Source: Candidatus Woesearchaeota archaeon
GTDB lineage: Archaea > Nanobdellota > Nanobdellia > Woesearchaeales > ARS49
DNA length: 64,000 bases
Assembly: GCA_018302815.1 (NCBI GenBank)
Contig: JAGVZE010000010.1
Location: forward strand, 3,523-67,522
Direction of reading: 5' to 3'
The position numbers and the translations under genes were made by a program. The stretch's first letter is position 1. Each line of letters begins with the position of its first letter. This document shows positions 2,076 to 61,284 of this stretch, piece after piece. Below the pieces are notes generated by a model that saw nothing but the letters and a program-made list of their open reading frames with translations, was not told where the DNA came from and did not search any database.

Positions 2076-2364
2076 GGCACCTCGTATTTGGCTTTTGTGT
2101 TGTGGTCAGCAAGAAATGAGGCAAGGATGAATTTTGTGCACAGAGCACAATGTCTTCGAAGAGCGCCCTGTGGCGCGTGCACGTTCCGATTAAATAATGA
2201 AGATGCTATGGTAGAAAGATTTAGGTAACAACCCATCATGAATTGTGTTTTGTTCCCAGCTTATCACTGAAAATAATCAAGCGAGTCAACCTCTTAAACT
2301 TTTGTGTTCACTGCTCAGTGTTTTTTACGCAATTAATTTAAAGAGCCTCATAGAAATAAAGAGC

Positions 2365-16870: not shown

Positions 16871-16871
16871 A

Positions 16872-17855: not shown

Positions 17856-17931
17856 AATTCACACAAAATAAATAAATTGCCCAGATGAAACCATCAACAA
17901 AAGAAGTCATATATTCGCTGAACTTACAAAT

Positions 17932-18522: not shown

Positions 18523-18602
18523 AAATATCAGAAAGACCTTCCAGTTCTTAAACCTTTGCTAGTTGCGATTACTTTTTATACCCTCCACCGGTTCTTTCAA
18601 TC

Positions 18603-20605: not shown

Positions 20606-20609
20606 AACC

Positions 20610-24236: not shown

Positions 24237-25183
24237 TCTTTCACCCTACGCGCGATCACAAAGAGCTGTATGCCTCCCGTTGGAAACAGCCAAAAAATCG
24301 GATAGGTCAATAGCGCAGGAACAATAAAAAGTCGACGGCACGCCCTTAAAATCAAGCGCTTCAAACTAAATCCTCTAACATCAACTGACCTATATGAGTT
24401 TCTTGCGCTTGGAAGAGCAAGAGCCACAATCCGTTCAAACGTGAAAACCCAATTGCCAAAATGATGAGTTTGTATCTTCGCAGAAAACCCATTGCGCCTC
24501 AAAAATTGCCTCAATGAGCGAGCATTCCACCTCAAAAAGTGATGAGGCGGACTATCCATCTCCTTTGGAAGAAGCCGAGATGAAATAGGACGATTCGGAA
24601 CAGTAAGAACCAGCACACCGTCACGCTCCAACATCAAGGAAATGCCGCGCAAGAAACCAGCAGGATCAGACTGATGCTCAAGAGTCTCAAAACAAGTTAT
24701 AATGTCAAAACACCCGCGTTTTTTCAAGCAGTATTCCTGCGGGCTTGCCGCAGAAAGCATCAATCCATACTCCCTCTTCCCATATTCAATCAGAGAACGA
24801 TTGAAATCCATACCTTCGACCGAGTATCTGCCCCTGCACTTATTCAGAAAATTCCCAGTGGCACACCCTACATCAAGAAGCGTTTTTTTGCCATTGAAAC
24901 GTTTCCCGCAAAAAACTTTGTGATACCATGCAAGAGGAACATCACGCTCCAACTGAGCGTAGTCAGGATGACTCTCATAAAAAACAGGGTCTATCACAGA
25001 TGGACTTGAAAACACAAGATCGCACCTAACGCACTTGAAAAGCGTAAAATCCATCCAACGCTCAACAAAAACGCAAGGAGCTTCCAACTCGCAAGAAGGG
25101 CACATTGAAGAAACCTCAACCATTTTTCCTCCAAGCCAGCCTAAACAGCTCAACATGCAACTGAGCGCATTGATCCCAATCAT
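24233..25183 (-). CDS. class I SAM-dependent methyltransferase with N-terminal zinc ribbon
   Basis: CPSCE...CVRCD ribbon; LLDVGCATGNFL (motif I) and DIITCFETLEH. Confidence 0.7.
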   Translation of the reverse strand: MIGINALSCMLSCLGWLGGKMVEVSSMCPSCELEAPCVFVERWMDFTLFKCVRCDLVFSSPSVIDPVFYESHPDYAQLERDVPLAWYHKVFCGKRFNGKKTLLDVGCATGNFLNKCRGRYSVEGMDFNRSLIEYGKREYGLMLSAASPQEYCLKKRGCFDIITCFETLEHQSDPAGFLRGISLMLERDGVLVLTVPNRPISSRLLPKEMDSPPHHFLRWNARSLRQFLRRNGFSAKIQTHHFGNWVFTFERIVALALPSARNSYRSVDVRGFSLKRLILRACRRLFIVPALLTYPIFWLFPTGGIQLFVIARRVKE

Positions 25184-27527
25184 ACCTCTTAGACACCATC
25201 AGGCGCGCAGCCTCATTTTGCACTGCCTTGCCTGCGCGAGCCTCAAGAATGGTTATGCCTTGCGCCACATCTTCACTTGACTTAAAATAACTACCTGATT
25301 TTCCAAGCACTTCCCTATTGAATAAATTCTCGTGAGCTATAATAGTGCACCCAGCGCCGGCTGCCGAAAGCAACGATGGATTCGTCCCTCCGACACTATG
25401 ACCGTGGAAATATGCAAACGAATAAAACCTCAGCGCGTCAGTAATCCTATCGTCAAATATGCCCCCCATGAATCGCACACTCGCACATTCAAAACTTTTT
25501 CTTAGTGATTTTCCATACGGAGTATTGGCAGGACCCACAATTATCAAGTCTTTTCCGCTTTTCGAATTCAAGAAACCAGTTATTATTAAATCAACGTTAT
25601 TTTCAGGCTCAAGACGCGCTATGACCAGATAATAATTATTTGCACGAACTTTTATCCCTTCAAGAAAACTTTTGTCTGCTGTTCGACACACATCCGCGCC
25701 ATACGCTGCGTATTTTGCATCGACACCGTATGTGGTGTCGTAATAATCAACGAGAACTTTTGAATCCACAACTACCATAGCCGCGACCTTTGTGGCGAAC
25801 CACTCGGAGAAACGCAAATAAAGACGGGCAAATGCGCCCCATTTAGACCGTTTCCATTCCAATCCATCCATATTTATCAGAACAGTCTTGCCGAGCATCC
25901 TTGGAACGACGCAGAATATGCTGCTTGAATAGCCAAGCACATACACAAATCTGCTATCATCAAAGCTCGCCCGCACAAGACAATGCAAGTCATATAAAAG
26001 CGTTCCTGCCGCGCCAAGATAATAACTGTAATCTCGAACAACAACTCTCCTAATCCCCCGATAGACTTTTTTAGTGAACTCTCCTTTCGGACAACAAACA
26101 CTTACCTTGAATCCCTTTTTCAAAAGCCCAATCCCGAGCCGCTCTACAAATGTCTCAAATCCACCATATTTCGCAGGAATCCCCCTTGTTCCAAGTATCG
26201 ATACCGATTTGCTGTCCAATCGAGGCATACTGGTCAAGCGGTCAAGAGCAAAAGAAGCAAACGGATAGAGCGCGAGCAGCGCGGTAAGTCGCCACCTGAC
26301 AAATGGAGCGATAGTCACTACAAAATACGAAAGAAATAGAAACATTCCCAGAGCGTACCCGCTCAAAACGTACGATTGCTTAACCCTGCGCGACAGAAAT
26401 AACCCAATCAACACAAATGGAATGAGCGCATACCACCACAGAATGGACACTGAATAAAGCAGTTCATACAAACTTTTTGCACCCCATGGAAACGGCAGGA
26501 AAAATCCATATGCCATCGCCAAAGGAAAAAACTTCACCACATCAAGACCTGATTTGAACTCGACAAAGACAGCACTATCATCAAAAAACGCATGATGACT
26601 CGCCATATTGCTTTGCCGCACGGAAGTTATTATTCTTGCAACCCTTGACGGACTACTTTTTAACGCGATAAACGCACTCGATTCTACAGCCTGCTCTGAA
26701 AATGCAGTTTGTGCGAAATCGGTTTCACCTGATTGCGAATCAACCGACACATCAAATATACTCAAAGTGGGCGATATCGAAACCAAAATAAACACCACTG
26801 CTATCGCCGCGAACGTCAAAATTCGCCTCCACGCGACATCAAATATAGAAACTGCCATCATCGCAAGAAGCAATATGAACGCGAAATAGCTGCGATAAAA
26901 AGTATGCATCATAAAAAAGCCCGCTGCAAATAAAAATATGTCATACCATCGATTTTTTGAAATGAAAACATACATCAAAAAACCAACCAAGAACACAGTA
27001 ATAGCCTCTTTTAAAAGCTGAACCGCCCAATAATTCAATGCGGGATCTATTAAAATCAAAAGACTGCAAATGCGAGAAGCAGCCGCACCAAATAAACGAT
27101 ACGCGCAAAGCGATAAGAACAACAATCCAAATGAGGAAAGAATGACGTTAAACAACTCGACGAACGCCACGTGCCGTCCAAAAATCGCGAAAAAAAAAGT
27201 CAGAAGCTTCTCAGGAGTCGGTTTTTCAACAAAAATATCCTTTGTTAAGAATCCTTCATCTGCTAGTTTCTGGGACTCAACCATATAGAATCCACTATCG
27301 GGATGCTCGAACACATTTCCAAATAACCAAACGTTCACCAGTAATATGACGATAATCTTTAGCACAATTGAAAGAAGAAACACACCCAGAAACCATCTCC
27401 GAAGAGGCTCTTTATTAAGCAATAAAAAGAGCCCGACCGCTGAGAAAATAACACAGAATACCAAAAAGCCCATCCCGAACATATCCTCGCGAAAAGCGCA
27501 CTTATTAATAAACATACCGCACATCAC
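25116..27527 (-). CDS. fusion: polytopic membrane domain + glycosyltransferase family 4 (DUF1972-type N-domain)
   Basis: N-terminal ~400 aa multi-TM (polymerase/ligase-like). C-terminal half has ILGTRGIPAKYGGFETFVERL (DUF1972 hallmark) and a GT4 C-domain. Start overlaps the MTase gene by ~68 nt, so the true start is likely an internal Met. Confidence 0.65.
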   Translation of the reverse strand: MMCGMFINKCAFREDMFGMGFLVFCVIFSAVGLFLLLNKEPLRRWFLGVFLLSIVLKIIVILLVNVWLFGNVFEHPDSGFYMVESQKLADEGFLTKDIFVEKPTPEKLLTFFFAIFGRHVAFVELFNVILSSFGLLFLSLCAYRLFGAAASRICSLLILIDPALNYWAVQLLKEAITVFLVGFLMYVFISKNRWYDIFLFAAGFFMMHTFYRSYFAFILLLAMMAVSIFDVAWRRILTFAAIAVVFILVSISPTLSIFDVSVDSQSGETDFAQTAFSEQAVESSAFIALKSSPSRVARIITSVRQSNMASHHAFFDDSAVFVEFKSGLDVVKFFPLAMAYGFFLPFPWGAKSLYELLYSVSILWWYALIPFVLIGLFLSRRVKQSYVLSGYALGMFLFLSYFVVTIAPFVRWRLTALLALYPFASFALDRLTSMPRLDSKSVSILGTRGIPAKYGGFETFVERLGIGLLKKGFKVSVCCPKGEFTKKVYRGIRRVVVRDYSYYLGAAGTLLYDLHCLVRASFDDSRFVYVLGYSSSIFCVVPRMLGKTVLINMDGLEWKRSKWGAFARLYLRFSEWFATKVAAMVVVDSKVLVDYYDTTYGVDAKYAAYGADVCRTADKSFLEGIKVRANNYYLVIARLEPENNVDLIITGFLNSKSGKDLIIVGPANTPYGKSLRKSFECASVRFMGGIFDDRITDALRFYSFAYFHGHSVGGTNPSLLSAAGAGCTIIAHENLFNREVLGKSGSYFKSSEDVAQGITILEARAGKAVQNEAARLMVSKRYDWDQCAQLHVELFRLAWRKNG

Positions 27528-27533
27528 CCCGTT

Positions 27534-28790
27534 ATGCGAACCGCACTCAAGCGCGCGATTTTAAACGGAAAAATAGTAGCACAGAACATCAAAGCGCTGG
27601 ATTTATCCTATTTCGCCAAAGGAGCGTTTTGGCTTGGCAGCTCATACGTGATAATAGCACTAATACGCCTTGCACAATCCTCAATCCTCGCGCGCGGCTC
27701 AAGCGTCGAATTTTTCGGCCAGTTCCAATTCGTTCTAAGCATCATCGCAACCCTTACCCTTGCGGCCCTTCCCGGAATGGAAACTGCTATCACACAGGCA
27801 GTCGCGAATAAAAAAACCGCATCGCTTATACTCGGAACAAAAGCAAAACTTAAGTCGAGCCTCATTGGAAGCATATCCCTTCTTGCGCTCGGCGCATTCT
27901 TCACGTTCATAAAACCCCAACCATTCGCTCAAGCGCTAATCGTGGCAGCCCCGCTGTTTCCGATTTACACAAGTTTCAACAGCATTCAAGGATACTATCG
28001 CGGAACGGGCAATTTCAAGATGGCTTCCTTTTGCGAGACCTTGTTCTACTCGGTGAATGCCATCGCATTAATCAGCGCATTTCTAATCACTCATTCGCTC
28101 ACAATCATGCTTCTCTCCATGATGATCGCGGGAGCCACCATAATGATGGCACTATACCTGAACGTAGCGCGAAATATCAGATCCGAAGAATCAGACCCAT
28201 CAACGGTTTCGCTTGGAAAAAGTTTAACCCTTATGAGTGCCATCCAATTTACAACTCCGCACATAGACCGATACATCATCACTGCATTTCTTGGCTTTGA
28301 AGCGCTTGCCATTTACACAATCGCGATATCAATCTCACTATACCTCACATACGGAGGAAAATTGCTGAGCACACTGGTTCTGCCAAAGCTCGCACGCATC
28401 CAAGCCCACCACGAAACGCGCATAAAACACCTATTATTCGCCTATGCTTTTTCCATCGCGGCCACCCTCGCGCTCATCGCACTAGTACTCCCCTATGCAA
28501 TTCCTCTTCTCTTCTCGGACCAATATACGTCATCAATACCGCTGGCCCAGCTCTCCTTGACAGCCCTCGCATTTTCACTGCCATCAATGATTCTAATCAC
28601 TTATTTCCAGACCCGCAAAAACCTGGCGCTCCTTTATAAATTTCAGTTCGCCAAAGGCGCGTTCAACTTCGTACTGCTCATTTTGCTCGTCTCCTGGCTT
28701 GGAATCATGGGCGCAGTCATCAGCAAAATAATCCTTGAACTTTGCGGATTCATCTTCCTTTCAAGACGATTTTATGCAATAAAGATTTAA
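27534..28790 (+). CDS. Wzx-like oligosaccharide flippase (MOP superfamily)
   Basis: 418 aa with ~12 predicted TM helices, positioned among the GT/AglB genes. Confidence 0.55.
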   Translation: MRTALKRAILNGKIVAQNIKALDLSYFAKGAFWLGSSYVIIALIRLAQSSILARGSSVEFFGQFQFVLSIIATLTLAALPGMETAITQAVANKKTASLILGTKAKLKSSLIGSISLLALGAFFTFIKPQPFAQALIVAAPLFPIYTSFNSIQGYYRGTGNFKMASFCETLFYSVNAIALISAFLITHSLTIMLLSMMIAGATIMMALYLNVARNIRSEESDPSTVSLGKSLTLMSAIQFTTPHIDRYIITAFLGFEALAIYTIAISISLYLTYGGKLLSTLVLPKLARIQAHHETRIKHLLFAYAFSIAATLALIALVLPYAIPLLFSDQYTSSIPLAQLSLTALAFSLPSMILITYFQTRKNLALLYKFQFAKGAFNFVLLILLVSWLGIMGAVISKIILELCGFIFLSRRFYAIKI

Positions 28791-28814: not shown

Positions 28815-29810
28815 ATGTTCATACCTCCCCTCTTTTTCGCGGCAGTAATCAGTTTTTTATTGAGCGCGTTCGTCATTCCAAGATGGATTGAACGTTCAAA
28901 ACAGCACGGGCTTCTGGTAACTGATGTCCAGAAACTTCCAAACAGGAAAATACCATTTCTTGCAGGACTTGGCGTAGTATTCAGCGCAGTGGTCGGTATC
29001 CTAGGATATATCGCCATCCAGACCTTTCTGTTCAACGAGTCAGCGAATACTACGGTGCTCCTAGCTGCGATCGCGAGCCTTCTAATCGCCCTAGTCATCG
29101 GAGTCGTGGATGACTTGCTTGGAGAGAAAATAGGGCTCACCCAGATTCAAAAACCATTACTAAGCATAGTAGCTGCCCTTCCAATTTCCGTAATCAACGC
29201 CGGACGCAACGTAATGACTCTCCCAATATTGGGAAAAATCCAACTGGGCAATGCGTACCCCTTCGCAATCGTTCCTCTCGCGATAACAGGAGCAGCCAAC
29301 GGTTTCAATATGCTCGCGGGCCTCAATGGACTTGAAGCAGGAATGGGCCTTATCATACTCTCAGCACTAGGTTATTATTCGCTCGCGATGACAGAATACG
29401 CAGCGGCAGTAATAGCATACTGCGCGGTGTTCGCCATCGCACCGTTCTTCTACTACAACAAATACCCCGCGCGCATACTGCCCGGAAACGGATTCACTTA
29501 TTCTATCGGGGCAATCATAGCGATTGTCGCCATCCTGGCTGATGCAGAGCGAACAGCTCTTCTTTTATTCACACCCTACTTCATCGAACTTATGCTCAAG
29601 GCAAGAGGCAGATTCAAGAAAGAAAGCCTCGCAGTACCTCTTCCAGACGGAAGCATCAAGAATCAGTACGCGAAATGGTATTCGCTAAACCATGTCGCAA
29701 TATCATTTCTGCGCGAGATAAAAGGCAAAGCCTACGAATGGGAAGCGTGCTTTGCACTATTAGGGTTTGAACTGATAATAGCATTAATCGCTATTTGGCC
29801 GCATATTTGA
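28815..29810 (+). CDS. aglH: UDP-HexNAc:dolichyl-phosphate HexNAc-1-phosphate transferase (AglH/GPT, MraY-WecA family)
   Basis: NGFNMLAGLNGLEAG matches the NxxNxxDGxDGL signature; 10-11 TM. Confidence 0.75.
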   Translation: MFIPPLFFAAVISFLLSAFVIPRWIERSKQHGLLVTDVQKLPNRKIPFLAGLGVVFSAVVGILGYIAIQTFLFNESANTTVLLAAIASLLIALVIGVVDDLLGEKIGLTQIQKPLLSIVAALPISVINAGRNVMTLPILGKIQLGNAYPFAIVPLAITGAANGFNMLAGLNGLEAGMGLIILSALGYYSLAMTEYAAAVIAYCAVFAIAPFFYYNKYPARILPGNGFTYSIGAIIAIVAILADAERTALLLFTPYFIELMLKARGRFKKESLAVPLPDGSIKNQYAKWYSLNHVAISFLREIKGKAYEWEACFALLGFELIIALIAIWPHI

Positions 29811-29944: not shown

Positions 29945-30748
29945 ATGGATCATCTTGACATACTCGAAAATAAAAGCATACACATCATACGCGAAGCATA
30001 CAAACAGTTCCATCAACTAGGACTTCTTTGGTCCATCGGAAAAGATTCGACCACTCTGCTTTGGCTCTGCCGAAAAGCGTTCTTTGGCAATCTCCCCTTT
30101 CCAGTAATCCACATCGATACGACCTTCAAATTCCCTGAAATGTACACGTTCAGAGATCACTGGGCAAAAGAATGGAAGCTCAACCTAATCATCTCGAAGA
30201 ACCAAGAAGCGCTAGACCGGGGAATCGGCTATGCCACGCACGACGCGATCACCTGCTGTGATGAGTTAAAGACAAAAGCGCTAAAACAGTTAATCGCGCA
30301 AAAAAAATTCAAAGCCATACTTGTAGGCATCAGACGAGACGAGCACGGAATCCGCGCGAAAGAACGGGTCTTCTCTCCACGAAGCGAGAACTTCACATGG
30401 AACTACAAAAATCAGCCGACTGAACTTTGGGACCAATACAATTCATCCGCAGAATCAAGCGATCATATGCGAATCCACCCGTTGCTGCATTGGACAGAAC
30501 TTGACATCTGGGAATACATCAAACGGGAAAACATCCCAATCAACGAACTCTACTTCGCGAAAAATGGCAAACGATACCGCAGCCTTGGCTGTATGCCCAT
30601 AACTAAACCGATTGATTCTACCGCCACCACCGTCGATGCAATCATCGCAGAGCTTAAAACCACAAAAACCGCAGAACGCGCAGGCAGATCACAAGATAAA
30701 GAAACCGCGTACGCAATGCAAAAACTCAGAAGCCTCGGGTATATGTAA
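29945..30748 (+). CDS. cysD: sulfate adenylyltransferase subunit 2 (CysD)
   Basis: SIGKDSTTLLWLCRKAF PP-loop and full-length colinearity with E. coli CysD (IHIDT..KFPEMY.FRD, RRDEH..RAKERV, LGC.P). Confidence 0.9.
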   Translation: MDHLDILENKSIHIIREAYKQFHQLGLLWSIGKDSTTLLWLCRKAFFGNLPFPVIHIDTTFKFPEMYTFRDHWAKEWKLNLIISKNQEALDRGIGYATHDAITCCDELKTKALKQLIAQKKFKAILVGIRRDEHGIRAKERVFSPRSENFTWNYKNQPTELWDQYNSSAESSDHMRIHPLLHWTELDIWEYIKRENIPINELYFAKNGKRYRSLGCMPITKPIDSTATTVDAIIAELKTTKTAERAGRSQDKETAYAMQKLRSLGYM

Positions 30749-30749
30749 A

Positions 30750-30950
30750 ATGGAACATCACAAACGAACATTACTCAAAACTGCCACTTGGAGAATAACC
30801 GGCACAGGATTCACCCTCATTTCAGTCTACGCAGTCACAGGAAGCATGAGCCTGAGCATGACCGCCAGCGCGGCTGAACTCGCGCTCAAACCCATAATAT
30901 ACTACTGCCACGAGCGAGTATGGAATAACATCGGCTGGGCGCGAAAATGA
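30750..30950 (+). CDS. small membrane protein (66 aa)
   Basis: [31 protein letters not shown] has one TM segment; overlaps the cysN start by 4 nt. Confidence 0.3.
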
Positions 30951-32185
30951 ACACTCTTAATTTTGTCATTGTCGGCCACGTGGACCATGGAAAATCAACA
31001 CTAATAGGAAGACTGCTCTATGACACCAACGCGCTCCCGACTGACCGTGTAGAAGAACTCAAAGCAGCATGCAATGCTCTTGGACGAGAACTCGAATTCT
31101 CATTCATAACTGATCATCTTCAGGAAGAGCGCGAGCAAAACGTCACGATAGATACTACCCAAATCAAGTTCAAGACGCAAAACAGAGATTACACCATAAT
31201 CGATGCACCGGGGCACAAAGAATTCCTGAAAAATATGATGACCGGAGCATCCCAAGCAGAAGCAGCCGCGCTAATAGTGGATGCAAAAGAGGGCGTGCAG
31301 GAACAGACAAGACGCCACGCATCCATAATCGCATTGTTAGGCATAAAACAAGTGGTTGTGCTGCTCAACAAGATGGACCTTGTCGAATTCTCAAAAGAAC
31401 GCTTTGATCAACTAAAAGCACAAACTGAAACATTCTTCAAAACACTAGATATGACTCCCGCACACATCATTCCCATAGTCGCAAAAGATGGAGACAATTG
31501 TGCGAACCCGTCAACACGGATGCAGTGGTATTCTGGTTTGACATTTTTAGAGGCGCTTGACCAGTTCACCATCAAAGAAAAACCAACAAACAAGCCGCTT
31601 CGATACTCAGTACAAGACGTGTACAAAGTCGGTGAAAAAAGAATCCTGGTTGGCAGGGTGGAAGCAGGAGTTCTGAAATCAGGACAAAAAATCACATTCC
31701 TTCCATCAAATAAACAAACAGTTGTCAAAACAATAGAAGTCTTTGGAAACGAAGGGAAAAAAGAGGCAGAAGCGGGAGAATGCATCGGAATCACAATATC
31801 CGACCCATTATTCATAGAACGAGGAGAAATAGCGTGCGCAGTGGAACAGCCGCCAATTATCGCACAAAAAATAGAATCAAATGTATTCTGGTTCTCCAGC
31901 AAAAACTTCGAGAAAAAAGATAAAATCACAATAAAACTCGCGACGCAAGAAGCATCCTGCCGCGTTGAACAACTTGAACGAATCGATTCATCGACATTTG
32001 AAGTGATAGAACACGATGCGACACAGCTTTGCCCCACAGAAATAGGCAGATTCGTACTCATACCTGAAAAACCAATAGTGATAGAGGATTTCAATGAAGT
32101 CGAAGAACTCGGCAGATTTGTCCTTGAACTGAATGGGGAAGCCGCAGGAGGCGGCATAGTAGTCTCAAAACAAGACAAAGCATGA
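30947..32185 (+). CDS. cysN: sulfate adenylyltransferase subunit 1 (CysN, GTPase)
   Basis: [36 protein letters not shown]; CysN-like rather than EF-Tu-like spacing. No C-terminal APS-kinase domain. Confidence 0.85.
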
Positions 32186-32901
32186 CAAAACTCATTATTC
32201 TCGGAATGGACGGACTTGAATACGACCTTGTCACAAAATTCGGCTATAAAAACCTCATGCAAGACCATTTCGGGAAAACAGATATTTCGGAATTTGAGCT
32301 TCCGCGAAGCGTCATATTATGGTCCTCGTTTATCGCAGGAAAAAGCAAAGAAAAAGAACTCACCGCGCTGACGAATTTTTGGCACGCAAAAATGCCTATC
32401 GCGCAGACCTTCTTTGCGAACGCCAAAAATCCACTCGCACTAGATGTTCCCGGATTCACATACATTAACGAACAGCATGATCGTGAACGACAAAATATGA
32501 AAGATTTCCTTGAAGGCAAGAATATCACCATAGAAGAATATGACAAACACGTATTCGCACACCATCAAAAAATCAAGGAACAATTTTTCAAGGCGCTTGA
32601 AACAGGAGAACATGACGTCATCATGGCATATTTTAGCGTGTCTGATGTCATAGGGCATTTGAGCTTTGGCATAACGCCCAAAATGAGAATGATATACCAA
32701 GATTTAGATGAAATCGCGGCCAAAGTCAAAGCAAAATTCAGGGGGAAATTGCTCATAATATCAGACCACGGCATGTTCGCGCGCGGAAGATTCGGCGATC
32801 ATACAACATACGGCTTCTGGTCAACTAATTTCGACGTTCAATTCAAAAATCCGAAACTCACAGACTTCTTCAAAACACTAATCGATGCACAGTTGGAATA
32901 G
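32182..32901 (+). CDS. small alkaline-phosphatase-superfamily metalloenzyme (NPP/phosphodiesterase-like)
   Basis: [13 protein letters not shown] start and ISDHGM near the C-terminus; 239 aa. Confidence 0.4.
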
Positions 32902-32903
32902 CA

Positions 32904-33674
32904 ATGAAATTTCTTCCACGATTGAAAGAATATCTGAACTTACTGGTAGTCTTCACTAAGATGGAGTTCCTTACGAAATATCAGGGGAGCTTCTTAGGCT
33001 TCGCATGGTATTTTATAAACCCCATACTGACATTCGCATTGCTTTATTTGATATTCTCAACAAGATTCGGCGCAGACATAGAGAATTACGAGGCATACCT
33101 ATTAATCGGCATAGTGCAGTGGAATTTTTTCCAATCTGCCGTAGGCAAATCAATCGGCGCAGTGTTTGAAAACCACGCGCTCATAAAATCAATAAATTTT
33201 CCGCGGGAAATAGTCATAATGGCATCAGTGTTGGCCGCCTTAATAAGCCACCTATTTGAACTGGTGTTGCTCGCGTGCACAATGATATATCTTAAGATGA
33301 GCATTGTGAACATGATATTCATTTTGCCAATACTATTCATCCAATTATTATTCGCGCTCGGAGTTTCTTTGATATTATCATCAGTAGTAGTATATGTGAG
33401 CGATGTGCAGCAAGCATGGGTTTACATATCGCGCCTCTGGTGGCTTGGAACGCCCATATTCTACATGGCAAATGAAGGATCGAAATTGTTCTTGTTCAAC
33501 ATACGATTTAACACGCAATTCCAATTCATTTACACCACAAGAGAGCTGCTCATCAATAATACGTTCCCTACACCATCGCTGGTATTCTCAATGACTATCA
33601 ATTCGATATTGATATTTATAGCGGGATACCTGGTATTCAATAAACTCAAAGTTCGTTTTCCGGAGCTCATATGA
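32904..33674 (+). CDS. ABC-2 type polysaccharide exporter permease (Wzm/TagG-like)
   Basis: 256 aa with 6 TM; directly precedes an ABC ATPase that overlaps it by 4 nt. Confidence 0.7.
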   Translation: MKFLPRLKEYLNLLVVFTKMEFLTKYQGSFLGFAWYFINPILTFALLYLIFSTRFGADIENYEAYLLIGIVQWNFFQSAVGKSIGAVFENHALIKSINFPREIVIMASVLAALISHLFELVLLACTMIYLKMSIVNMIFILPILFIQLLFALGVSLILSSVVVYVSDVQQAWVYISRLWWLGTPIFYMANEGSKLFLFNIRFNTQFQFIYTTRELLINNTFPTPSLVFSMTINSILIFIAGYLVFNKLKVRFPELI

Positions 33675-34414
33675 AACAAGTAATAGAAGCAACAAATGTA
33701 TTCAAAAAATACCCAATAGAGTTGATGAGAAAAAAAAGAAGGCAATTCTTTAAAATATTATTCGATGGATTTCCAAAAATAGAGCATGTACAAGCGTTGA
33801 ACGGTGTTAGTTTGCGCATACAACAAGGAGAATGCGTTGGCATAATAGGTCCGAACGGGAGCGGCAAATCGACTCTCCTTAGCATAATCGCAGGAATCCT
33901 GAAAGCAGACAGCGGCAACATAAAGACAAAAGGGAAAATAGTATCATTGTTCGACACTAAACTCGGAAGACAGGAAATGAGCGCAGATACAAATCGCCGC
34001 TTTCTTTGCGGACTTTTTGGAATGCCGCGAAAACAGATCAGCAAAACGAAAAGCGCGGTGTTCAAGACAGCAGGATTATCAAATTTCGCGGATACACCGA
34101 TGATAAAATACTCGCGCGGAATGAGGGATAGACTGATGTTATCTTTATCGCTCAGCGTCAAACCGGACATACTTCTCCTCGATGAAGTACTTTCAGAATC
34201 AGATGAAGCATTCAGGTCGAAATTCGCAAAAGCCATAAGAAAATACGCTTCTTCGGGAAAAACAGTCATCATGATAAGCCACGAGCTCGCGCTCGTAGAG
34301 AAAATGTGCGCAAGGACAATCTGGCTCGATAAAGGCACCATACGAATGGACGCAAACACAGCGAAAGTCTTAAAAACCTACAGGGAGGCGTCTTGCAATG
34401 CAACAAAAATATGA
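33671..34414 (+). CDS. ABC transporter ATP-binding protein (Wzt/TagH-like)
   Basis: Walker A GIIGPNGSGKSTLL, signature YSRGMRDRL, Walker B ILLLDEVLS. Confidence 0.85.
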   Translation: MKQVIEATNVFKKYPIELMRKKRRQFFKILFDGFPKIEHVQALNGVSLRIQQGECVGIIGPNGSGKSTLLSIIAGILKADSGNIKTKGKIVSLFDTKLGRQEMSADTNRRFLCGLFGMPRKQISKTKSAVFKTAGLSNFADTPMIKYSRGMRDRLMLSLSLSVKPDILLLDEVLSESDEAFRSKFAKAIRKYASSGKTVIMISHELALVEKMCARTIWLDKGTIRMDANTAKVLKTYREASCNATKI

Positions 34415-35795
34415 CCACGTGCTATTCATATCGATGGACACGTGCAGGGCGGACCATCTTGGCTGCTACGGACATTCAAGGAAAACCACGCCAATACTGT
34501 CAAAATTCTGCGAAGAAAACATAATATTTGAGAAATCGTTTTCATCGAGCGTGCCAACATTACCCTCACACACAACAGTATTTACCTCGCTCTATCAAGG
34601 CGTCCATGGCGCAGAAGTGACACTCTCTGCGCCCATGCCTGAAAAACTCACCACGATAGCTGAAGTCCTGAAACGGCAAGGCCACATAACCGCAGCATTC
34701 CACAGCGGCGCCCAATTAAGCGAGATATGGAATGTCTTCAAAGGATTCGACATCGTTAATTATGCGTCCACACAATCAATAAAAGAAACAGCGGGATTTT
34801 ACAAAGAGTTCATAGAAGCCAACAAAGACAAGAAGACATTCGGATTCGTCCACGGATTGGATATGCACTTCCCACACTACAAACCAGGCCTGTTCTCTGA
34901 TGAATTAAAAGTCGATAAACAAAGAGTGATAGACAAAATCAACGATTGCGACCACGACCTGACTGGTGAAGGCACAAAAACAGAAGTCTGCGCACTATAC
35001 GATGACAGCATAGTATTTTTTGACCGGCACATAGGCACGATATTTGACAAGCTAAAAGAGTTAGGTATATACGATAAGACAATCATAGTAATCTTCGGAG
35101 ATCATGGCGAAGAATTCGGCGAACGATCAAGAATGGCCGCGCACCACAAGAACCTTTTTGATGAACTTATAAGAGTCCCATTCCTACTTCGGATACCCGG
35201 ATTAGAACCTAAAAAAATCAGAACGAACGTGCGGCTCATAGATATAATGCCGACAGTGCTGGCCGCCATGGGAATCAATGAACAAATAATCATGCAAGGA
35301 GAGAATCTGCTGCCGACAATCCTTGGAACGAAAAGCATAGACCTTCCTGTTTTCACAGAATACCTGCACCGTAATTCATATGCAATCAGCATCAAAACAA
35401 GCTTTTTGCAATTAATCTGTGAAAGGGAAAGCACTTTTTTGAGAAAGCTCATATTGCGCTATAGATCCATAAGAAAACACGCATCTAAAGAACCGAGCTT
35501 ATTGCGTAGATTGGCAGTCATGACAAAACTACTCATCATAAAATCAAAATCATTCACCGAATTTGACACTATAACATTCTGTGATGCGCGATCGGAAGAA
35601 AGAAACAAACCGCGCCTCATAGTCGCCAGATTAGGAAAATATGAGCGAAGAATAGTGAACAGACTTCTTGAGTTGATAAGCAAGCAAATGGAAGAGAACA
35701 AGCTGCTGCAACAAGAACTCACCGGAGGAGTAAAAACAACAGTGGAACTTCGAGGAGAAATGAAAAAAAGCCTTGAAGAGTTAAACTACCTATGA
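34398..35795 (+). CDS. sulfatase-family (alkaline phosphatase superfamily) enzyme, Thr-type nucleophile motif
   Basis: SMDTCRADHLGCYGH N-terminus; TLPSHTTVFTS sits at the position of the sulfatase C/S-x-P-x-R motif; GDHGEEFGE metal-binding block. Confidence 0.65.
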   Translation: MQQKYDHVLFISMDTCRADHLGCYGHSRKTTPILSKFCEENIIFEKSFSSSVPTLPSHTTVFTSLYQGVHGAEVTLSAPMPEKLTTIAEVLKRQGHITAAFHSGAQLSEIWNVFKGFDIVNYASTQSIKETAGFYKEFIEANKDKKTFGFVHGLDMHFPHYKPGLFSDELKVDKQRVIDKINDCDHDLTGEGTKTEVCALYDDSIVFFDRHIGTIFDKLKELGIYDKTIIVIFGDHGEEFGERSRMAAHHKNLFDELIRVPFLLRIPGLEPKKIRTNVRLIDIMPTVLAAMGINEQIIMQGENLLPTILGTKSIDLPVFTEYLHRNSYAISIKTSFLQLICERESTFLRKLILRYRSIRKHASKEPSLLRRLAVMTKLLIIKSKSFTEFDTITFCDARSEERNKPRLIVARLGKYERRIVNRLLELISKQMEENKLLQQELTGGVKTTVELRGEMKKSLEELNYL

Positions 35796-37225
35796 ACACT
35801 CCCCCTAAGAACGTGATATACATATCTATTGATTGCGGAAGACGCGATCATTTCAGCTGTTATGGCTATCCTGATACTACGACACCGAACATAGATCGGT
35901 TCAGCAAAAAAAGCACACTATTCAGGAACGCGTTCACACAGGCGCCATCAACACTTCCATCACACTCGACGCTATTCACATCAACATACCCCTCAGTGCA
36001 CGAGGCGGAAATATCAACAGGTAAAGCCCTGCCAAAAACAATCCCGACCATCGCGTCAATACTGCAACACGCAGGTTATGCGACCGCATCTTTCAACGGA
36101 GGAGCGCAACTCGACCCCTCATGGAAACTTGACCGAGGTTTTGACACGTACCAAACAGGGAAAAGCTTGGTAAATAATATCGAACTTGCGATCGACTGGG
36201 TGAAAGATAATAAGTCAACGCAGTTCTTCTTATTCCTGCACGGTTATGACGTACATAAACGCCTAAAACTCATGGGTCCGCGTTTTCTCGCGCAATTCGA
36301 TAATGCAGAACAAGCAGAGAAAGAAAGGGCAGCATTGAATGAGCGCCTCAAAAAAAATCCGACCGCATCTGAAGAAGACAAGCGAAAATACCTGCTTCTT
36401 TATGATGATAATTTAGAACTTGTGGATACAGCTCTGGGTCACCTGTTTACTTTTTTGGATGAGATTGACCTATCTGAAAACACCATCATCGTCATCTTTG
36501 CAGACCATGGAGAGGAACTTGGCGAGCGTTCAAGTGTGGCTTTGCACTCGCACACGCTCTATGATGAACTGTTACGCGTCCCCTTGCTATTGAAAATACC
36601 CGGAACAGAACAAAAAGAGATCGATAATCCTGTCGGACTTATCGACGTCACACCAACCATACTTGAAACGTTGGGAATAGATATTCCACAGATAATGCAA
36701 GGAAAAAGCGTCCTTCCAATAATGGCCGGCAAAGAAACACAAGACCGCACCATCTTTAGCGAATTCCATTATCCGCATTTTGAAAAAATGTGCGTACGCA
36801 CAAGACACCATAAATTGATAGAGACGCTACACACGAATTACGGCGAAGCTATGCTGAAAAACAAAGCCTTCAAAGGCTCCCAGTATTCAAAAATACAAAA
36901 AATCAAGGAATTCTCAAATAGACCGGCATACCTTCTTGCAAACGCAATTTATTTCATACTCAAAAGAATAGGATTATGCTCTCTTTGGATTCGGCTTTTT
37001 GGTCTTTTCAAGACGTATGAATTCTACGATCTTAAAATCGATCCGAAAGAGGAGACCAATATCTACTATGACGACCCTGCGAAAGCAAGCAGCCACCTGA
37101 AACTTCTTGAGAAATTATGCAAAATAAACCAGCAGAGAAGAGACGTTAAAGATTCAACACCCCGAATCGTTCAAATGAGTGAAAAATTAAAAAAACGGCT
37201 TAGCGAGCTCGGATACATTCAATAA
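35792..37225 (+). CDS. sulfatase-family (alkaline phosphatase superfamily) enzyme, paralog
   Basis: SIDCGRRDHFSCYGY; TLPSHSTLFTS; ADHGEELGE; overlaps the upstream paralog by 4 nt. Confidence 0.65.
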   Translation: MNTPPKNVIYISIDCGRRDHFSCYGYPDTTTPNIDRFSKKSTLFRNAFTQAPSTLPSHSTLFTSTYPSVHEAEISTGKALPKTIPTIASILQHAGYATASFNGGAQLDPSWKLDRGFDTYQTGKSLVNNIELAIDWVKDNKSTQFFLFLHGYDVHKRLKLMGPRFLAQFDNAEQAEKERAALNERLKKNPTASEEDKRKYLLLYDDNLELVDTALGHLFTFLDEIDLSENTIIVIFADHGEELGERSSVALHSHTLYDELLRVPLLLKIPGTEQKEIDNPVGLIDVTPTILETLGIDIPQIMQGKSVLPIMAGKETQDRTIFSEFHYPHFEKMCVRTRHHKLIETLHTNYGEAMLKNKAFKGSQYSKIQKIKEFSNRPAYLLANAIYFILKRIGLCSLWIRLFGLFKTYEFYDLKIDPKEETNIYYDDPAKASSHLKLLEKLCKINQQRRDVKDSTPRIVQMSEKLKKRLSELGYIQ

Positions 37226-38426
37226 CTTTTTTCATGCCATTCACGAATACCGAAAGATCAAATTCCTTCGCACGCGCCATTCTTAAAGCAGAATCAGTTG
37301 GAATATCTTCTTTAATCGCCTGAGCAAGAGTCTTCGCAGTCATCTGCGGCACAAGTTTTCCCACACTTGGAAGAACAGTTTCAACATATCCTCCTGATTG
37401 AGGTGCGATAACGTATTTCCCAGAAGCTAAAGCCTCTATCACAGTCATCCCGAAATCCTCGTCTATCGCGGTTGTAATGAAACCCCTGCATCCCGCATAT
37501 AACTCGGCAAGTTCCTCTTCGCTCACTGCGCCTTTATATGTGACATTTTCAGGTAACCTATCAAGAATACCATTGAACGATGCATCATCTCCTTTCGCAC
37601 CCACGATGATCAAGTGTTCATCAGGCAAATCAGCGAATGCCTTTATTTGCATCATGATTCGTTTATGCCGCTCTATCCTATTCACACTAAGCCAGAAATT
37701 TTGAGGGTTTTTACATGAGTATTTTTGCGTGTCAATCCCAGGATACACAACCACCGATTCCCTGCCGAAAATGCCCTTCACTGAGTTCGCAGTGTATTTA
37801 CTGTTCACAACAATCGCAGTCACGCAATTCACAAATGATTTATCACTTTCAACATTCTTAAAAAAACGCAACGCCTTGAAATTCCTAATCAATTCACGCA
37901 AACCCTTCAATTTGCTATTTCGAATAATCCTAAATGCATCAGCCATTTGCCGCAATATCGGCGCTCTTTTTGACACTGCCTGCTTAAGTTTAATGAACAA
38001 GGTACTCTGCACCGGATAATGTAATCCTTTATCAGGATGATGGCAGTACCAAATAGACGGCTTATGCTTATCTGCTGCGTGTAAAGAATGTATGCCGCTG
38101 AAAATAAAAAAGTCATATTTTCCCTGAAAATCGCACTCGCTAAAGCGCTTGATTGTAACTCTGGTGCGTAAAATAGGCTCATTAATAGGTTCTCCTAAAC
38201 GAACAATATTTACCCCCTGCGCCTCAAGAACAGCGACAACCTCATCACTCGCCTGCCCAGTAATAATATCCGCACCCACTGCTTTAGCGAGGCATATCAT
38301 CAATTTCTCAGCGCCACCTATCGTTGAGAACGTGTCGTGTAAAATCGCTCCTTTCACCACGATCCAAGAAGGACAAGCATATATAAATTTGACCACATCT
38401 CCCGCAGAATTGGCAATCTCAATCAC
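37200..38426 (-). CDS. glycosyltransferase family 4
   Basis: C-terminal EDFGMTVIEALASGKYVIAP GT4 motif. Convergent with, and overlapping, the end of the sulfatase-family gene, so the true stop/start may differ. Confidence 0.65.
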   Translation of the reverse strand: MIEIANSAGDVVKFIYACPSWIVVKGAILHDTFSTIGGAEKLMICLAKAVGADIITGQASDEVVAVLEAQGVNIVRLGEPINEPILRTRVTIKRFSECDFQGKYDFFIFSGIHSLHAADKHKPSIWYCHHPDKGLHYPVQSTLFIKLKQAVSKRAPILRQMADAFRIIRNSKLKGLRELIRNFKALRFFKNVESDKSFVNCVTAIVVNSKYTANSVKGIFGRESVVVYPGIDTQKYSCKNPQNFWLSVNRIERHKRIMMQIKAFADLPDEHLIIVGAKGDDASFNGILDRLPENVTYKGAVSEEELAELYAGCRGFITTAIDEDFGMTVIEALASGKYVIAPQSGGYVETVLPSVGKLVPQMTAKTLAQAIKEDIPTDSALRMARAKEFDLSVFVNGMKKVIECIRAR

Positions 38427-39772: not shown

Positions 39773-41689
39773 ATGGGGTTCAAACTGCACTCACGATTCT
39801 CGCCCGCAGGAGGGCAGCCGGAAACTATCAAAAAGCTTGTTGAAGGATTCAAACAGCGAAGCTGCCAAACCCTGCTTGGAATCACAGGAAGCGGAAAGAC
39901 TTTTGTGATGGCAAATGTTATCGACAAGGTTCAAAAGCCAACACTGGTCCTTGCCCACAACAAAACACTAGCAGCACAGCTTTACGCAGAACTCAAAGAC
40001 CTCTTTCCTGAGAATCGCGTCGAATACTTCATCAGCTACTACGACTACTACCAACCAGAAAGCTATCTGCCCACGACCGACACATACATCGAAAAGGATT
40101 CGAGCGTCAATGAGCAAATAGAAAAAATGAGACTCAAAGCGACATCAAGCCTTCTTTCACGCGATGACGTCATAATAGTCGCATCAATTAGCTGCATTTA
40201 CGGCCTTGGAGACCCAGGCAACTTCAAAGAACTATCCATCGAACTCAAAAAAGGAACAACGCTAAAACGCCAAGACCTGATCTCAAGCCTTGTACGCACG
40301 CAATATGAAAGAAACGATACTGCGCCCACCACAGGGCAATTCAGAGTACGAGGCGATGCGATAGACATCTATCCCGCGTATGACGACACGTTAATTCGCG
40401 TAGAACTCTTCGGCGACTCAATAGATAGGATAAGCGAACTGCACCCACTCACAAACGAAACCATCGCTTCACTAGAACACCTTCGAATCTTCCCAGCCAA
40501 ACAATTCGTTGTTCCAGAAGAAAAACAGCAACGCGCAATAGAAGAAATCAAATCAGAGCTCGAAGACTGGGCGCCCAACCTGCCAGAACTTGAAAGGCAG
40601 CGCCTCACAAAGCGAGTCAAATACGACCTTGAAATGCTAAATGAACTTGGCTATTGCTCAGGAATCGAAAACTACTCGAGGCATTTCGATGGCAGAAAAC
40701 AAGGAGAGCCGCCGTTCGTGCTTCTCGACTACTTTCCAGAGGATTTCCTTCTAATAATCGATGAAAGCCATCAAACAATACCCCAATCAAAAGCAATGTA
40801 CAAAGGAGACTATTCACGCAAGAAAAATCTCGTGGACTTTGGATTCCGCCTTCCCTGCGCGTTTGACAACCGCCCACTCAAATTTGAGGAGTTCGAGCAA
40901 TACTTCAAGAATGTACTCTTTGTCAGCGCGACGCCAGCAGAATATGAACTGCAAAAATCCAACCAGATAGTCGAACTAATCATCAGGCCGACAGGACTTC
41001 TTGACCCGCTCGTGGAAGTGCGTCCAATAACGGGACAAGTCAAGGACCTAATCGGCGAAATAAACAAAACAACAGCAAAGAACGAACGCGTCATCGTCAC
41101 AACACTAACCAAAAGAATGGCTGAGGACCTAACCGATCATCTCGCGAAAGCAGACATCAAAGTAAGATACCTGCACAGCGACATCGACAGCCTCGAACGC
41201 ATAGAACTCATACGTGCGCTTCGCGCCAAAGAATTCGACGTCCTTGTCGGAATAAATCTACTGCGAGAAGGACTTGATATTCCTGAAGTATCCCTTGTCG
41301 CAATACTTGACGCTGACAAAGAAGGATTCCTTCGAAACGAACGAAGCCTAATTCAAACAATCGGAAGAGCCGCGCGCAACGTCAATGGAAGAGTCATACT
41401 CTATGCAGACGTCATGACTGAATCAATGCAGAGCGCCATGGCGATAACAAAACGCAGGCGAATGGCACAAGAACAGTTCAACAAAAAGAACGGCATAACC
41501 CCACAGACAATAATAAAATCAGTCGCGAAAAAAACACGCGAGCTCAAAGGAACAAAACACATGTCAAAAACAGACATCAACAGAATGCTTGTCCAGCTGG
41601 AAGCGGATATGCGAACGGCAGCAGAACAACTCAACTTCGAAAAAGCCATACAAATCCGCGACCAACTGCGCGAACTTAGAGGTGAATGA
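39773..41689 (+). CDS. uvrB: excinuclease ABC subunit B
   Basis: QTLLGITGSGKTF helicase motif I, beta-hairpin region, C-terminal UVR domain (AIQIRDQLRELRG). Confidence 0.95.
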   Translation: MGFKLHSRFSPAGGQPETIKKLVEGFKQRSCQTLLGITGSGKTFVMANVIDKVQKPTLVLAHNKTLAAQLYAELKDLFPENRVEYFISYYDYYQPESYLPTTDTYIEKDSSVNEQIEKMRLKATSSLLSRDDVIIVASISCIYGLGDPGNFKELSIELKKGTTLKRQDLISSLVRTQYERNDTAPTTGQFRVRGDAIDIYPAYDDTLIRVELFGDSIDRISELHPLTNETIASLEHLRIFPAKQFVVPEEKQQRAIEEIKSELEDWAPNLPELERQRLTKRVKYDLEMLNELGYCSGIENYSRHFDGRKQGEPPFVLLDYFPEDFLLIIDESHQTIPQSKAMYKGDYSRKKNLVDFGFRLPCAFDNRPLKFEEFEQYFKNVLFVSATPAEYELQKSNQIVELIIRPTGLLDPLVEVRPITGQVKDLIGEINKTTAKNERVIVTTLTKRMAEDLTDHLAKADIKVRYLHSDIDSLERIELIRALRAKEFDVLVGINLLREGLDIPEVSLVAILDADKEGFLRNERSLIQTIGRAARNVNGRVILYADVMTESMQSAMAITKRRRMAQEQFNKKNGITPQTIIKSVAKKTRELKGTKHMSKTDINRMLVQLEADMRTAAEQLNFEKAIQIRDQLRELRGE

Positions 41690-41690
41690 A

Positions 41691-44540: not shown

Positions 44541-44549
44541 GCCAACCAA

Positions 44550-61136: not shown

Positions 61137-61284
61137 ACAGATCACCTTGCACAAATTAGAGCACACCAGTATATAAATATTGCTCGTATCGTAATCATTC
61201 GTCAAACACCCTTTACTCACAAGATAGCAACTTTTTTAAACCACCCTCATCTAGCAGAGCAAATAACAATTGGGGGTTGTTAAT

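Follow-up and report, generated by a model that had tools for sequence, protein, structure and literature searches.

A probable glycan-sulfation operon that joins ATP sulfurylase to sulfatase-fold enzymes, with no linked APS kinase, in the AglB cluster of a woesearchaeote

The DNA analysed here, referred to as the window, is a stretch of 64,000 nucleotides from a Candidatus Woesearchaeota archaeon (GenBank assembly GCA_018302815.1, contig JAGVZE010000010.1, positions 3,523 to 67,522). Within it, positions 29945-37225 form a single operon inside an AglB glycosylation cluster, which encodes the two subunits of ATP sulfurylase (CysD and CysN), a small enzyme of the alkaline-phosphatase (AP) superfamily, an ABC-2 exporter and two tandem sulfatase-fold paralogs (Table 1). 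Its probable function is to sulfate a surface glycan while this is still lipid-linked and faces the cytoplasm, and to export the product afterwards. Sulfatase-like proteins that sulfate archaeal N-glycans are already known in the form of Agl30 and Agl31. What is new is how widely the module occurs, across DPANN archaea, other anaerobic archaea and bacteria of the candidate phyla radiation (CPR), and the coupling of CysDN to it without CysC, the kinase of adenosine 5′-phosphosulfate (APS). The small AP-superfamily enzyme, which we call mini-AP, represents a newly found family that is a conserved, uncharacterised partner of cysN in roughly 130 species genomes, where it accompanies cysN in almost all loci of sufficient length.

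Genes of the window were identified from a listing of open reading frames (ORFs) together with Pfam and NCBIfam scans. From cysD to paralog 2, eight genes run in the forward direction, each abutting its neighbour or overlapping it by 4-17 bp, and the stop codon of the second gene, which encodes a DUF2061 protein, overlaps the cysN start as ATGA. A 134-bp gap separates the AglH-like gene from cysD, and AglB lies about 10 kb upstream of the paralogs in the same glycan cluster. A preliminary description of this DNA had placed cysD, cysN, the ABC-2 exporter and two alkaline-phosphatase-superfamily paralogs between the AglH, flippase and AglB genes and further glycosyltransferase family 4 (GT4) genes, and the Pfam and NCBIfam matches bear this out at the same positions; that inventory had overlooked the 66-aa DUF2061 protein and the 239-aa mini-AP. 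CysD scores 366 bits against the NCBIfam model PRK05253 (cutoff 195), and CysN scores 329 bits against TIGR02034 (cutoff 336), with an EF-1alpha model scoring equally well. The cysN gene carries no APS-kinase domain. The DUF2061 protein was also recovered by tblastn with a 74-aa protein family (f10) at E=2e-15.

The two paralogs carry the active-site sequences VPTLPSHTTVFTS (paralog 1) and PSTLPSHSTLFTS (paralog 2), which share the motif T-L-P-S-H-(T/S)-T-(V/L)-F-T-S. In HMMER alignments to solved sulfatases, the Thr aligns to the formylglycine (FGly) position and the His to the Arg of C-x-P-x-R, as had been read from the sequence earlier, and the canonical C-x-P-x-R was not found. A family alignment of 61-62 sequences shows no variation at T54 and at least 90% conservation of H58; D14, D19, H70, H150, H155, D238, H239 and H252 are likewise invariant in the clade, a His-rich set. 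Because Thr and His replace Cys and Arg across the whole clade, the paralogs are, judged by these residues, not FGly sulfatases, and this part of the preliminary description stands. The paralogs are 31% identical to each other and match PF00884 at E about 1e-42. Paralog 2 has more than 2800 homologs at E≤1e-10, and nearly all of the best 120 carry P-S-T-L-P-S-H; the relatives are mostly bacterial proteins whose N-termini, judged by eye, resemble export or lipoprotein signals. The idea that the Thr/His motif is peculiar to this locus was rejected, as it is common to a large, mostly bacterial clade.

Neither paralog has a signal peptide or transmembrane segment (maximum Kyte-Doolittle hydropathy, KD19, 1.3-1.5). 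Each ORF is at its full possible extent and opens with the first beta-strand of the catalytic domain, and the two proteins are predicted to be cytoplasmic. The AlphaFold2 (AF2) model of paralog 2 has a predicted local distance difference test score (pLDDT) of 91, with a moderately hydrophobic, low-confidence insertion at about residues 350-405. Its top 50 Foldseek matches in the Protein Data Bank (PDB) consist entirely of S1 sulfatases, sulfamidase and choline sulfatase, with E about 1e-22 to 1e-25 and a TM-score of 0.61-0.68, and include 7STT, 7LJ2, 4MHX, 5G2V and 5G2T/5G2U (BT1596). Sequence searches agree in placing S1 carbohydrate sulfatases closest to the paralogs. Models of LtaS and EptA match the paralogs at E=1e-5 to 1e-15, far under their cutoffs, and rank below the S1 sulfatases.

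The nearest functional precedent is the pair Agl30 (VNG1056C) and Agl31 (VNG1057C) of Halobacterium salinarum, whose genes lie side by side in the aglB cluster (Zaretsky et al., 2025; PMC11980604). Agl30 is associated with the membrane and Agl31 is cytosolic; the annotation of each is that of a sulfatase-like or alkaline-phosphatase-core protein. Each sulfates a different sugar of a tetrasaccharide linked to dolichol phosphate; without the genes sulfation is lost, and Haloferax volcanii gains it when they are introduced. The nearest structures to the two proteins are BT1596 (5G2U) and FA22070 (6HHM) (PMC11980604), and the model of paralog 2 matches the same PDB sulfatase class (BT1596, 5G2U) that best matched Agl30. 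A follow-up study places the sulfation on the cytoplasmic face, before flipping (PMC12624080). Neither paper mentions the donor, 3′-phosphoadenosine 5′-phosphosulfate (PAPS), APS or catalytic residues (PMC11980604; PMC12624080). The window resembles this system in holding a pair of distinct AP-core, sulfatase-like proteins in an aglB-anchored cluster with S1 carbohydrate sulfatases as structural neighbours, and in that the enzymes work on the inner side of the membrane ahead of flipping, which in the window is a predicted location. It differs in that the genes share one operon with CysDN, mini-AP and the ABC-2 exporter, and in that the host belongs to DPANN and is not a haloarchaeon. Given the precedent, the gene context and the logic of the active site, paralogs 1 and 2 are probably glycan sulfotransferases. 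The preliminary description had seen no sulfotransferase in the window; the ones that it missed are, by this analogy, probably the two paralogs themselves.

Compared with the S1 sulfatases of SulfAtlas, the paralogs have the same two-subdomain fold, the DHG metal motif and the C-terminal element ...DL..DP.E..N..., but they carry Thr/His, lack a signal peptide and a recognisable maturase partner, and lie in a biosynthetic context. The SulfAtlas paper cautions that many PF00884 members carry Thr and cannot be assumed to be sulfatases (PMC5066984). It is highly improbable, in our judgement, that the paralogs are genuine sulfatases, with the Thr oxidised by a radical-SAM maturase or hydrolysing directly, in the service of glycan editing, glycan recycling or sulfate scavenging. 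Fold and best PDB matches are those of S1 carbohydrate sulfatases, a radical SAM/SPASM gene lies in the cluster and a further radical SAM gene nearby, and one study interprets DPANN atsA together with sulfate adenylyltransferase as catabolic, with arylsulfatases degrading marine polysaccharides (PMC8091004). However, oxidation of Thr would give a ketone, and formation of FGly from Thr has never been shown (PMC5066984). Enzymes predicted to be cytoplasmic, in one operon with ATP- and GTP-consuming sulfate activation and an exporter, also speak for biosynthesis rather than scavenging. The same direction is indicated by a related locus (L021) in which an 829-aa protein (945-3434, minus strand) fuses a Thr-type PF00884 sulfatase domain to a family 2 glycosyltransferase (GT2) and has another sulfatase-like gene, an ABC-2 exporter and cysD-cysN-miniAP as its neighbours; by its domain architecture, this fusion points to a biosynthetic role of the sulfatase fold.

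The Thr nucleophile in a PF00884 domain is shared with LtaS, EptA and MCR, whose ping-pong logic we propose for the paralogs. Those enzymes, in contrast, have a five-helix membrane domain, an extracytoplasmic site and phospholipid donors, and are distant matches (E about 1e-9 to 1e-15) without the S1-type C-terminal subdomain. One could suppose that the paralogs are Thr phosphotransferases or hydrolases, acting with phosphoglycerol, phosphoethanolamine or phosphocholine or trimming phosphodiesters, and are chemically unlinked to CysDN. We think this improbable, and equally so its corollary that CysDN serves another sulfation or an assimilatory purpose. The characterised Thr-type PF00884 enzymes known to us (LtaS, EptA/MCR, OpgB, BcsG) are indeed all phosphotransferases. 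The conserved His-rich set of the paralogs (H58, H70, H150, H155, H239, H252), with no conserved Lys near the active site, likewise resembles a phosphoryl site more than a sulfate site, and LicC/MobA-like nucleotidyltransferases occur in 13 related loci. Yet the known enzymes take lipid donors outside the cell, whereas the paralogs have neither a membrane domain nor an export signal and are coupled in one operon with cysDN, an arrangement conserved on a second contig (L001, described below). A similar set, of other PF00884 subtypes and in the opposite orientation, lies beside cysDN in L021; the operon holds no gene for synthesis of a phospho-donor, and Agl30 and Agl31 show that the fold can serve sulfation. 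The assignment of the paralogs to an LtaS, EptA or phosphonate monoester hydrolase (PMH) type in the preliminary description was thus right about the Thr nucleophile and not about the rest, as there is no membrane domain, S1 sulfatases are closest, and PMH uses FGly rather than Thr.

The sulfation genes were then compared across genomes. A mini-AP scan of one genome per species gave 133 matches, and 80 loci were retained. These come from DPANN (Woese-, Pace-, Nano-, Aenigm-, Micr-, Iain-, Alti- and Undin-archaeota), from other archaea (Thermoplasmata, Methanosarcinales/ANME-2/Methanoperedens, Methanofastidiosum, Hadarchaeota, Thermoproteota) and from bacteria of CPR groups (Patescibacteria, Saccharibacteria) and a few others; ANME denotes anaerobic methanotrophic archaea. 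A first set of 85 loci (1.19 Mb) contains the mini-AP-selected loci and the window, and its ORFs were called and clustered. Because selection by mini-AP is circular, a second set of 80 metagenome loci was picked by CysD similarity alone (63-87% identity). Both sets together hold 165 loci (about 1.9 Mb) with flanks of about 10 kb. Counts given below out of 85 refer to the first set.

The locus most like the window is L001, on a second contig, where the order cysD-cysN-miniAP-wzm-wzt-sulf1-sulf2-GT4(-) is as in the window, with protein identities of 55-87% (CysD 87%; GT4 55%, in the same position and orientation). L001 lacks the DUF2061 gene, and its flanks hold ribosomal-protein and ribonucleotide-reductase genes and no AglB. 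The same gene order in such unrelated surroundings argues that the sulfation genes are a conserved unit independent of the host cluster. Paralog 1 shares 61.5% identity with its L001 counterpart but just 38% with the second paralog there, and the closest homolog of paralog 2 is likewise its L001 orthologue (61% identity), cross-paralog comparisons giving 33-38%. We conclude from these identities that the two paralogs are old and non-redundant.

Across the 85 loci, the genes mostly run rhh-cysD-(TauE/TSUP permease, DUF2061 or nothing)-cysN-miniAP. CysN was found in 78 of these loci and CysD in 69, the others being contigs cut short. The window shares with 78 of 85 related loci the adjacency of cysN to cysD, which favours its assignment as CysN. 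Between cysD and cysN, 16 related loci have a DUF2061 gene and 24 a TauE/TSUP permease gene, and our guess is that the encoded proteins relate to sulfate supply. Recurrent neighbours are a Wzx flippase (31 loci), an NDP-sugar epimerase (27), UDP-glucose dehydrogenase (17) and GT4 (17), followed by GT2, a sugar-1-phosphate nucleotidyltransferase and a DegT aminotransferase. An assimilatory operon was rejected as an explanation, as CysH or sulfite-reductase families are not among the recurrent neighbours, which are glycan genes. The preliminary description had named a link of CysDN to assimilation, away from glycans, as what would overturn it, and in related loci CysDN lies mostly among glycan genes. 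It had also proposed a sulfated and/or phospho-decorated surface glycan: the gene set of L001 and the glycan neighbours favour the sulfated version, and phospho-decoration found no specific support.

Larger AP-superfamily enzymes recur in these loci: 19 loci contain PF00884-like ORFs, 23 in all and some of them partial, and 21 proteins of roughly 500 aa belong to PF01663. Thr occupies the nucleophile position in every neighbouring PF00884-like sequence with a readable active-site region. Nearly all the large enzymes begin at the first strand without a signal peptide, and because their ORFs start there directly, we take them to be cytoplasmic. In the second set, 36 of the 80 loci had cysN and at least 3.2 kb downstream of cysD. 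Among these 36, mini-AP directly follows cysN in 20, and a PF01663 enzyme of 420-530 aa lies beside cysN in about 9 more; by eye, about 33 of 37 CysD-selected loci with enough downstream sequence hold some AP-superfamily gene. An ABC-2 permease/ATPase pair sits directly 5′ of rhh-cysD in six CysD-selected loci, and such a pair accompanies cysDN-miniAP in other arrangements in L021, L105, L107, L120, L121, L134 and L146.

In the window, the permease has several hydrophobic segments and matches the NCBIfam galactan Wzm/RfbD model (E=9e-11, under cutoff), and the best NCBIfam models for the ATPase, which lacks a C-terminal carbohydrate-binding extension, are Wzt/RfbE and TagH (E about 1e-40, under cutoff). 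PF01061 and PF00005 are above their cutoffs, so that a permease and its cognate ATPase are encoded together in the glycan cluster. By these family matches, the pair is a Wzm/Wzt-like (ABC-2) exporter with a glycan as its putative substrate.

The mini-AP family comprises 532 cluster representatives (about 50% identity) at E≤1e-3. The Pfam match covers only part of the PF01663 profile, and many members have no precomputed Pfam match. D10, D155, H159, D195, H196 and H207 are invariant, and T/S43 is at least 90% conserved in a P-R-T/S...W-S-S-F-x-x-G context like the nucleophile motif of nucleotide pyrophosphatases/phosphodiesterases (NPP). We take the invariant residues to correspond to the bimetal site of NPP enzymes, by position and order rather than by superposition. 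The AF2 model (pLDDT 96.5) has as its best PDB folds ENPP7/6/5/3, Xanthomonas (Xac) NPP, phosphonoacetate hydrolase and the phosphoglycerate mutase iPGM, at a TM-score of about 0.5, and a sequence search found no solved relative (E at least 0.02). Mini-AP thus shares with NPP/ENPP enzymes (PF01663) six proposed metal-ligand positions and the Thr/Ser nucleophile in the same order. Several of the NPP fold matches were solved with AMP or nucleotides, and APS is formally a nucleotide mixed anhydride. The differences are size (239 aa against at least about 370 aa in the solved matches), an identity of only 10-17%, a cytoplasmic location, strict coupling to cysN and a family without a characterised member.

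Mini-AP lies downstream of cysD-cysN in all five loci inspected first, adjoining cysN in four and separated from it by two small genes in L003. It is translationally coupled to cysN: the two genes overlap at 44 of 76 junctions and are 0-20 bp apart at 16 more (60 of 76 together). It occupies the slot in which cysC sits in classical cysDNC operons, and is 45-56% identical between archaea and CPR bacteria. No other partner of CysDN is as conserved as mini-AP, which makes it the first candidate for handling APS. Its high conservation suggests a universal small substrate rather than a variable glycan, which is why we do not give it the acceptor-specific step. From the gene order and the absence of cysC, we infer that it handles a universal small molecule of the pathway, either taking the sulfuryl group from APS or removing pyrophosphate to pull APS synthesis forward.

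The absence of APS kinase and classical sulfotransferases, noted in the preliminary description and puzzling there, was borne out. No PF01583 or Sulfotransfer domain was found in the scanned window ORFs of at least 150 aa (60009-61220 and 61270-63327 being left unscanned), and tblastn of the whole window with Escherichia coli CysC gave only P-loop noise; L001 likewise gave no CysC. The CysC query, used in tblastn and phmmer, was validated by its detection of a true CysC in L135 (E=2.5e-43). CysC is absent from 164 of the 165 loci, including all of the first 85. The single CysC, L135 18972-19511, belongs to a separate canonical cysC-cysD-cysN set (about 17000-19511); this contig also carries an rhh-cysD-cysN-miniAP set, only a few genes away. 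The longest CysN in the first 85 loci is 480 aa, so that none is long enough for a CysN-CysC fusion, and a crude regular expression for the 5′-phosphosulfate-binding (PSB) loop of PAPS enzymes, a weak test, had no match in these loci. In this clade, an AP-superfamily enzyme rather than a kinase follows cysN.

Classical cysDNC systems and NodP/NodQ, paired with PAPS sulfotransferases such as NodH or Stf0, resemble the window in dedicating a CysD/CysN ATP sulfurylase to a surface or secreted glycoconjugate rather than to cysteine. The window differs in lacking an APS-kinase domain or gene and a Sulfotransfer protein, in having an NPP-like mini enzyme after cysN, and in that its candidate transferases have the sulfatase fold. 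As neither the window nor almost any related locus has an APS kinase, APS itself is the simplest donor, and we infer that donation is PAPS-independent.

The proposed pathway would then run as follows. CysD and CysN, identified by homology, would make APS from sulfate, ATP and GTP. The AglH-like enzyme would prime dolichol phosphate, on which GT4 and neighbouring glycosyltransferases would assemble the acceptor. The two paralogs would each sulfate a different position or sugar of it, in the manner of Agl30 and Agl31. With Thr in place of formylglycine, a covalent sulfo-enzyme cannot collapse by the aldehyde elimination used by true sulfatases; the sulfo-Thr intermediate would be resolved by the incoming acceptor hydroxyl, as in LtaS and EptA. 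The Wzm/Wzt-type exporter would move the highly charged sulfated product outward for use by AglB or another system, and attachment to proteins by AglB is possible. More broadly, we tentatively raise the possibility of a widespread PAPS-independent pathway in DPANN, anaerobic Euryarchaeota and CPR, in which Thr-nucleophile AP enzymes move the sulfuryl group from APS to acceptors through sulfo-Thr. In that still doubtful scheme, a universal mini-AP would replace CysC and work together with acceptor-specific enzymes of the sulfatase or NPP fold.

Several points weigh against the sulfation proposal or its donor. We know of no biochemically characterised member of the Thr/His clade, and of no characterised precedent for sulfuryl transfer by a Thr nucleophile or at a bimetal NPP-type site. 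The bacterial relatives with an exported look do not adjoin CysDN in the one case examined, and the ancestral activity of the clade was therefore probably extracytoplasmic and could not have depended on APS. Of the 28 mini-AP loci flanked by 6 kb or more on each side, only 17 have a large AP enzyme, and these enzymes are therefore accessory rather than obligatory. The likeness to Agl30 and Agl31 is drawn from their published description, not from their sequence or nucleophile residue. The absence of cysC applies to flanks of about 10 kb and not to whole genomes. One study reports an APS kinase elsewhere in the genomes of some ANME lineages that carry the module (PMC6286981), and a review lists PF03567-type putative sulfotransferases in some Woese- and Pacearchaeota (PMC11625862).

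These last reports bear on the classical alternative, in which an APS kinase is encoded elsewhere, the paralogs or unlinked sulfotransferases use PAPS, and mini-AP is a pyrophosphatase or a 3′-phosphatase of 3′-phosphoadenosine 5′-phosphate (PAP). We regard this route as rather unlikely. In its favour, almost every sulfotransferase characterised so far takes its sulfuryl group from PAPS. Bimetal enzymes of the AP superfamily also hydrolyse phosphomonoesters well, PAP must be removed by any PAPS user, and L135 holds cysC and cysD-cysN-miniAP side by side. However, that cysC belongs to its own second cysDN pair, CysN-CysC fusions are missing, and cysC is absent from the other 164 loci, whereas the slot directly after cysN is taken by mini-AP or another AP enzyme. 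It would be odd for an accessory phosphatase to be always linked and the essential kinase never.

Sulfation is taught as a PAPS-dependent process. The operon joins sulfatase-fold enzymes to sulfate activation without APS kinase, so that the choice between APS and PAPS, and the existence of sulfo-Thr, become directly testable; if true, the PAPS-independent proposal would describe a sulfatase scaffold run as a transferase. Agl30 and Agl31 are the only known archaeal N-glycan sulfotransferases, and they too have the sulfatase fold. In many cases, DPANN annotations of “arylsulfatase” and “sulfate adenylyltransferase” may mark the synthesis of sulfated cell-surface glycans, which would be relevant to the interaction of episymbiont and host. 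The CysDN of ANME and Methanoperedens has been read as assimilatory (PMC6286981), and the gene contexts suggest that many of these are likewise glycan-sulfation modules. The linked AP-superfamily genes are not remarked on in the searched passages of either PMC8091004 or PMC6286981.

A C-terminal tail of the form ...(K/R)L(K/R)xLGY(L/M/F) is shared among the module proteins. Of the 1314 ORFs in the first 85 loci, 140 carry it, namely CysD (65 of 70), the small RHH-like protein encoded upstream of cysD (63 of 64), six sulfatase-like enzymes including paralog 2, three large PF01663 proteins, one further AP-like protein and two singletons that resemble the RHH protein; it is confined to these groups. 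In the window, the tail sites are 30700-30748, 35750-35795 and 37180-37225: CysD ends ...AMQKLRSLGYM, paralog 1 has the variant ...LEELNYL, and paralog 2 ends ...KLKKRLSELGYIQ. Escherichia coli CysD ends ...ELKKRQGYF. One mini-AP variant has gained the tail as an extension. The tail could be a docking peptide that assembles the enzymes into one complex, with the EF-1alpha-like CysN as partner, a dimerisation helix or an intramolecular element. The terminal helix of paralog 2 (residues 464-472) is modelled at pLDDT about 94 and may pack on its own domain. Of the 120 paralog 2 homologs, 93 carry the tail, and most of these are bacterial and apparently exported. A clean explanation by docking to CysN is weakened by these exported homologs and by the confident terminal helix.

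Further variation surrounds cysD. A small protein of 70-110 aa, with an N-terminus that is RHH-like by eye, an acidic linker and the LGY tail, is encoded directly 5′ of cysD in 47 of 85 loci (for example L002 5765-5986, L003 3311-3634 and L004 5112-5767). It has no significant Pfam match and is absent from the window and L001. In some loci, CysD is about 690-707 aa long (L006 4726-6801) or an ORF of about 296 aa with the LAGLIDADG-like motifs GVLDGDGY and LYDSDGY lies between cysD and cysN (L012, L027, L034 and L068 among these loci). This may be an intein or homing endonuclease within the sulfate-activation genes. Another small AP-superfamily variant of about 280-320 aa, with the motif ILDACRYD and a weak PF00884 match (E=6e-4), recurs in cysDN-miniAP loci (L002 4759-5720, seemingly split into two ORFs; L034; L046; L081 4022-4963).

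Table 1. Genes of the operon and of its surroundings in the window, with the supporting model matches.
Feature	Positions	Strand	Match
cysD, catalytic subunit of sulfate adenylyltransferase	29945-30748	+	Pfam PAPS_reduct E=7e-45; NCBIfam PRK05253
DUF2061 small membrane protein, 66 aa	30750-30950	+	Pfam E=1e-15
cysN, GTPase subunit of sulfate adenylyltransferase, 412 aa	30947-32185	+	GTP_EFTU E=1e-49
Mini-AP, 239 aa, NPP-like, alkaline-phosphatase superfamily	32182-32901	+	PF01663 24.4 bits, cutoff 23
ABC-2 permease, Wzm/TagG-like	32904-33674	+	ABC2_membrane E=1.5e-7
ABC exporter ATPase, Wzt/TagH-like	33671-34414	+	ABC_tran E=1.5e-24
Sulfatase-fold paralog 1, 465 aa	34398-35795	+	PF00884 E=7e-42
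Sulfatase-fold paralog 2, 477 aa	35792-37225	+	PF00884 E=4e-42
Convergent GT4 glycosyltransferase	37200-38426	-	Glycos_transf_1 E=2e-22
AglH-like PF00953 phosphosugar transferase	28815-29810	+	
Wzx-like flippase	27534-28790	+	
803-aa protein, DUF1972/Cps2T-like glycosyltransferase domain	25116-27527	-	
SAM methyltransferase	24233-25183	-	
AglB/STT3	21636-24236	-	
GT2, GT2, radical SAM/SPASM gene, GT4, GT2, GT4	14912-21680		
Radical SAM/SPASM protein of the preceding row, 327 aa	16872-17855	+	
Radical SAM protein without SPASM domain, 380 aa	38520-39662	+	
uvrB-uvrA-uvrC, complete bacterial-type set	39773-46142	+	

The top NCBIfam model for the radical SAM/SPASM protein of the cluster is a tungsten-cofactor maturase (154 bits, far under cutoff). 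Maturation of Thr by an anSME-like enzyme was considered for this protein and rejected, as anSME is not among its 25 best NCBIfam matches and the gene is absent from L001. The second radical SAM gene, right after the convergent GT4, has weak family matches only and is not conserved in L001. In the 803-aa protein encoded next to the flippase, the C-terminal 360 aa resemble the rhamnosyltransferase Cps2T/DUF1972, and the N-terminal ~440 aa have no family match. The uvrB-uvrA-uvrC set adjoins the 3′ side of the glycan cluster in this DPANN archaeon.

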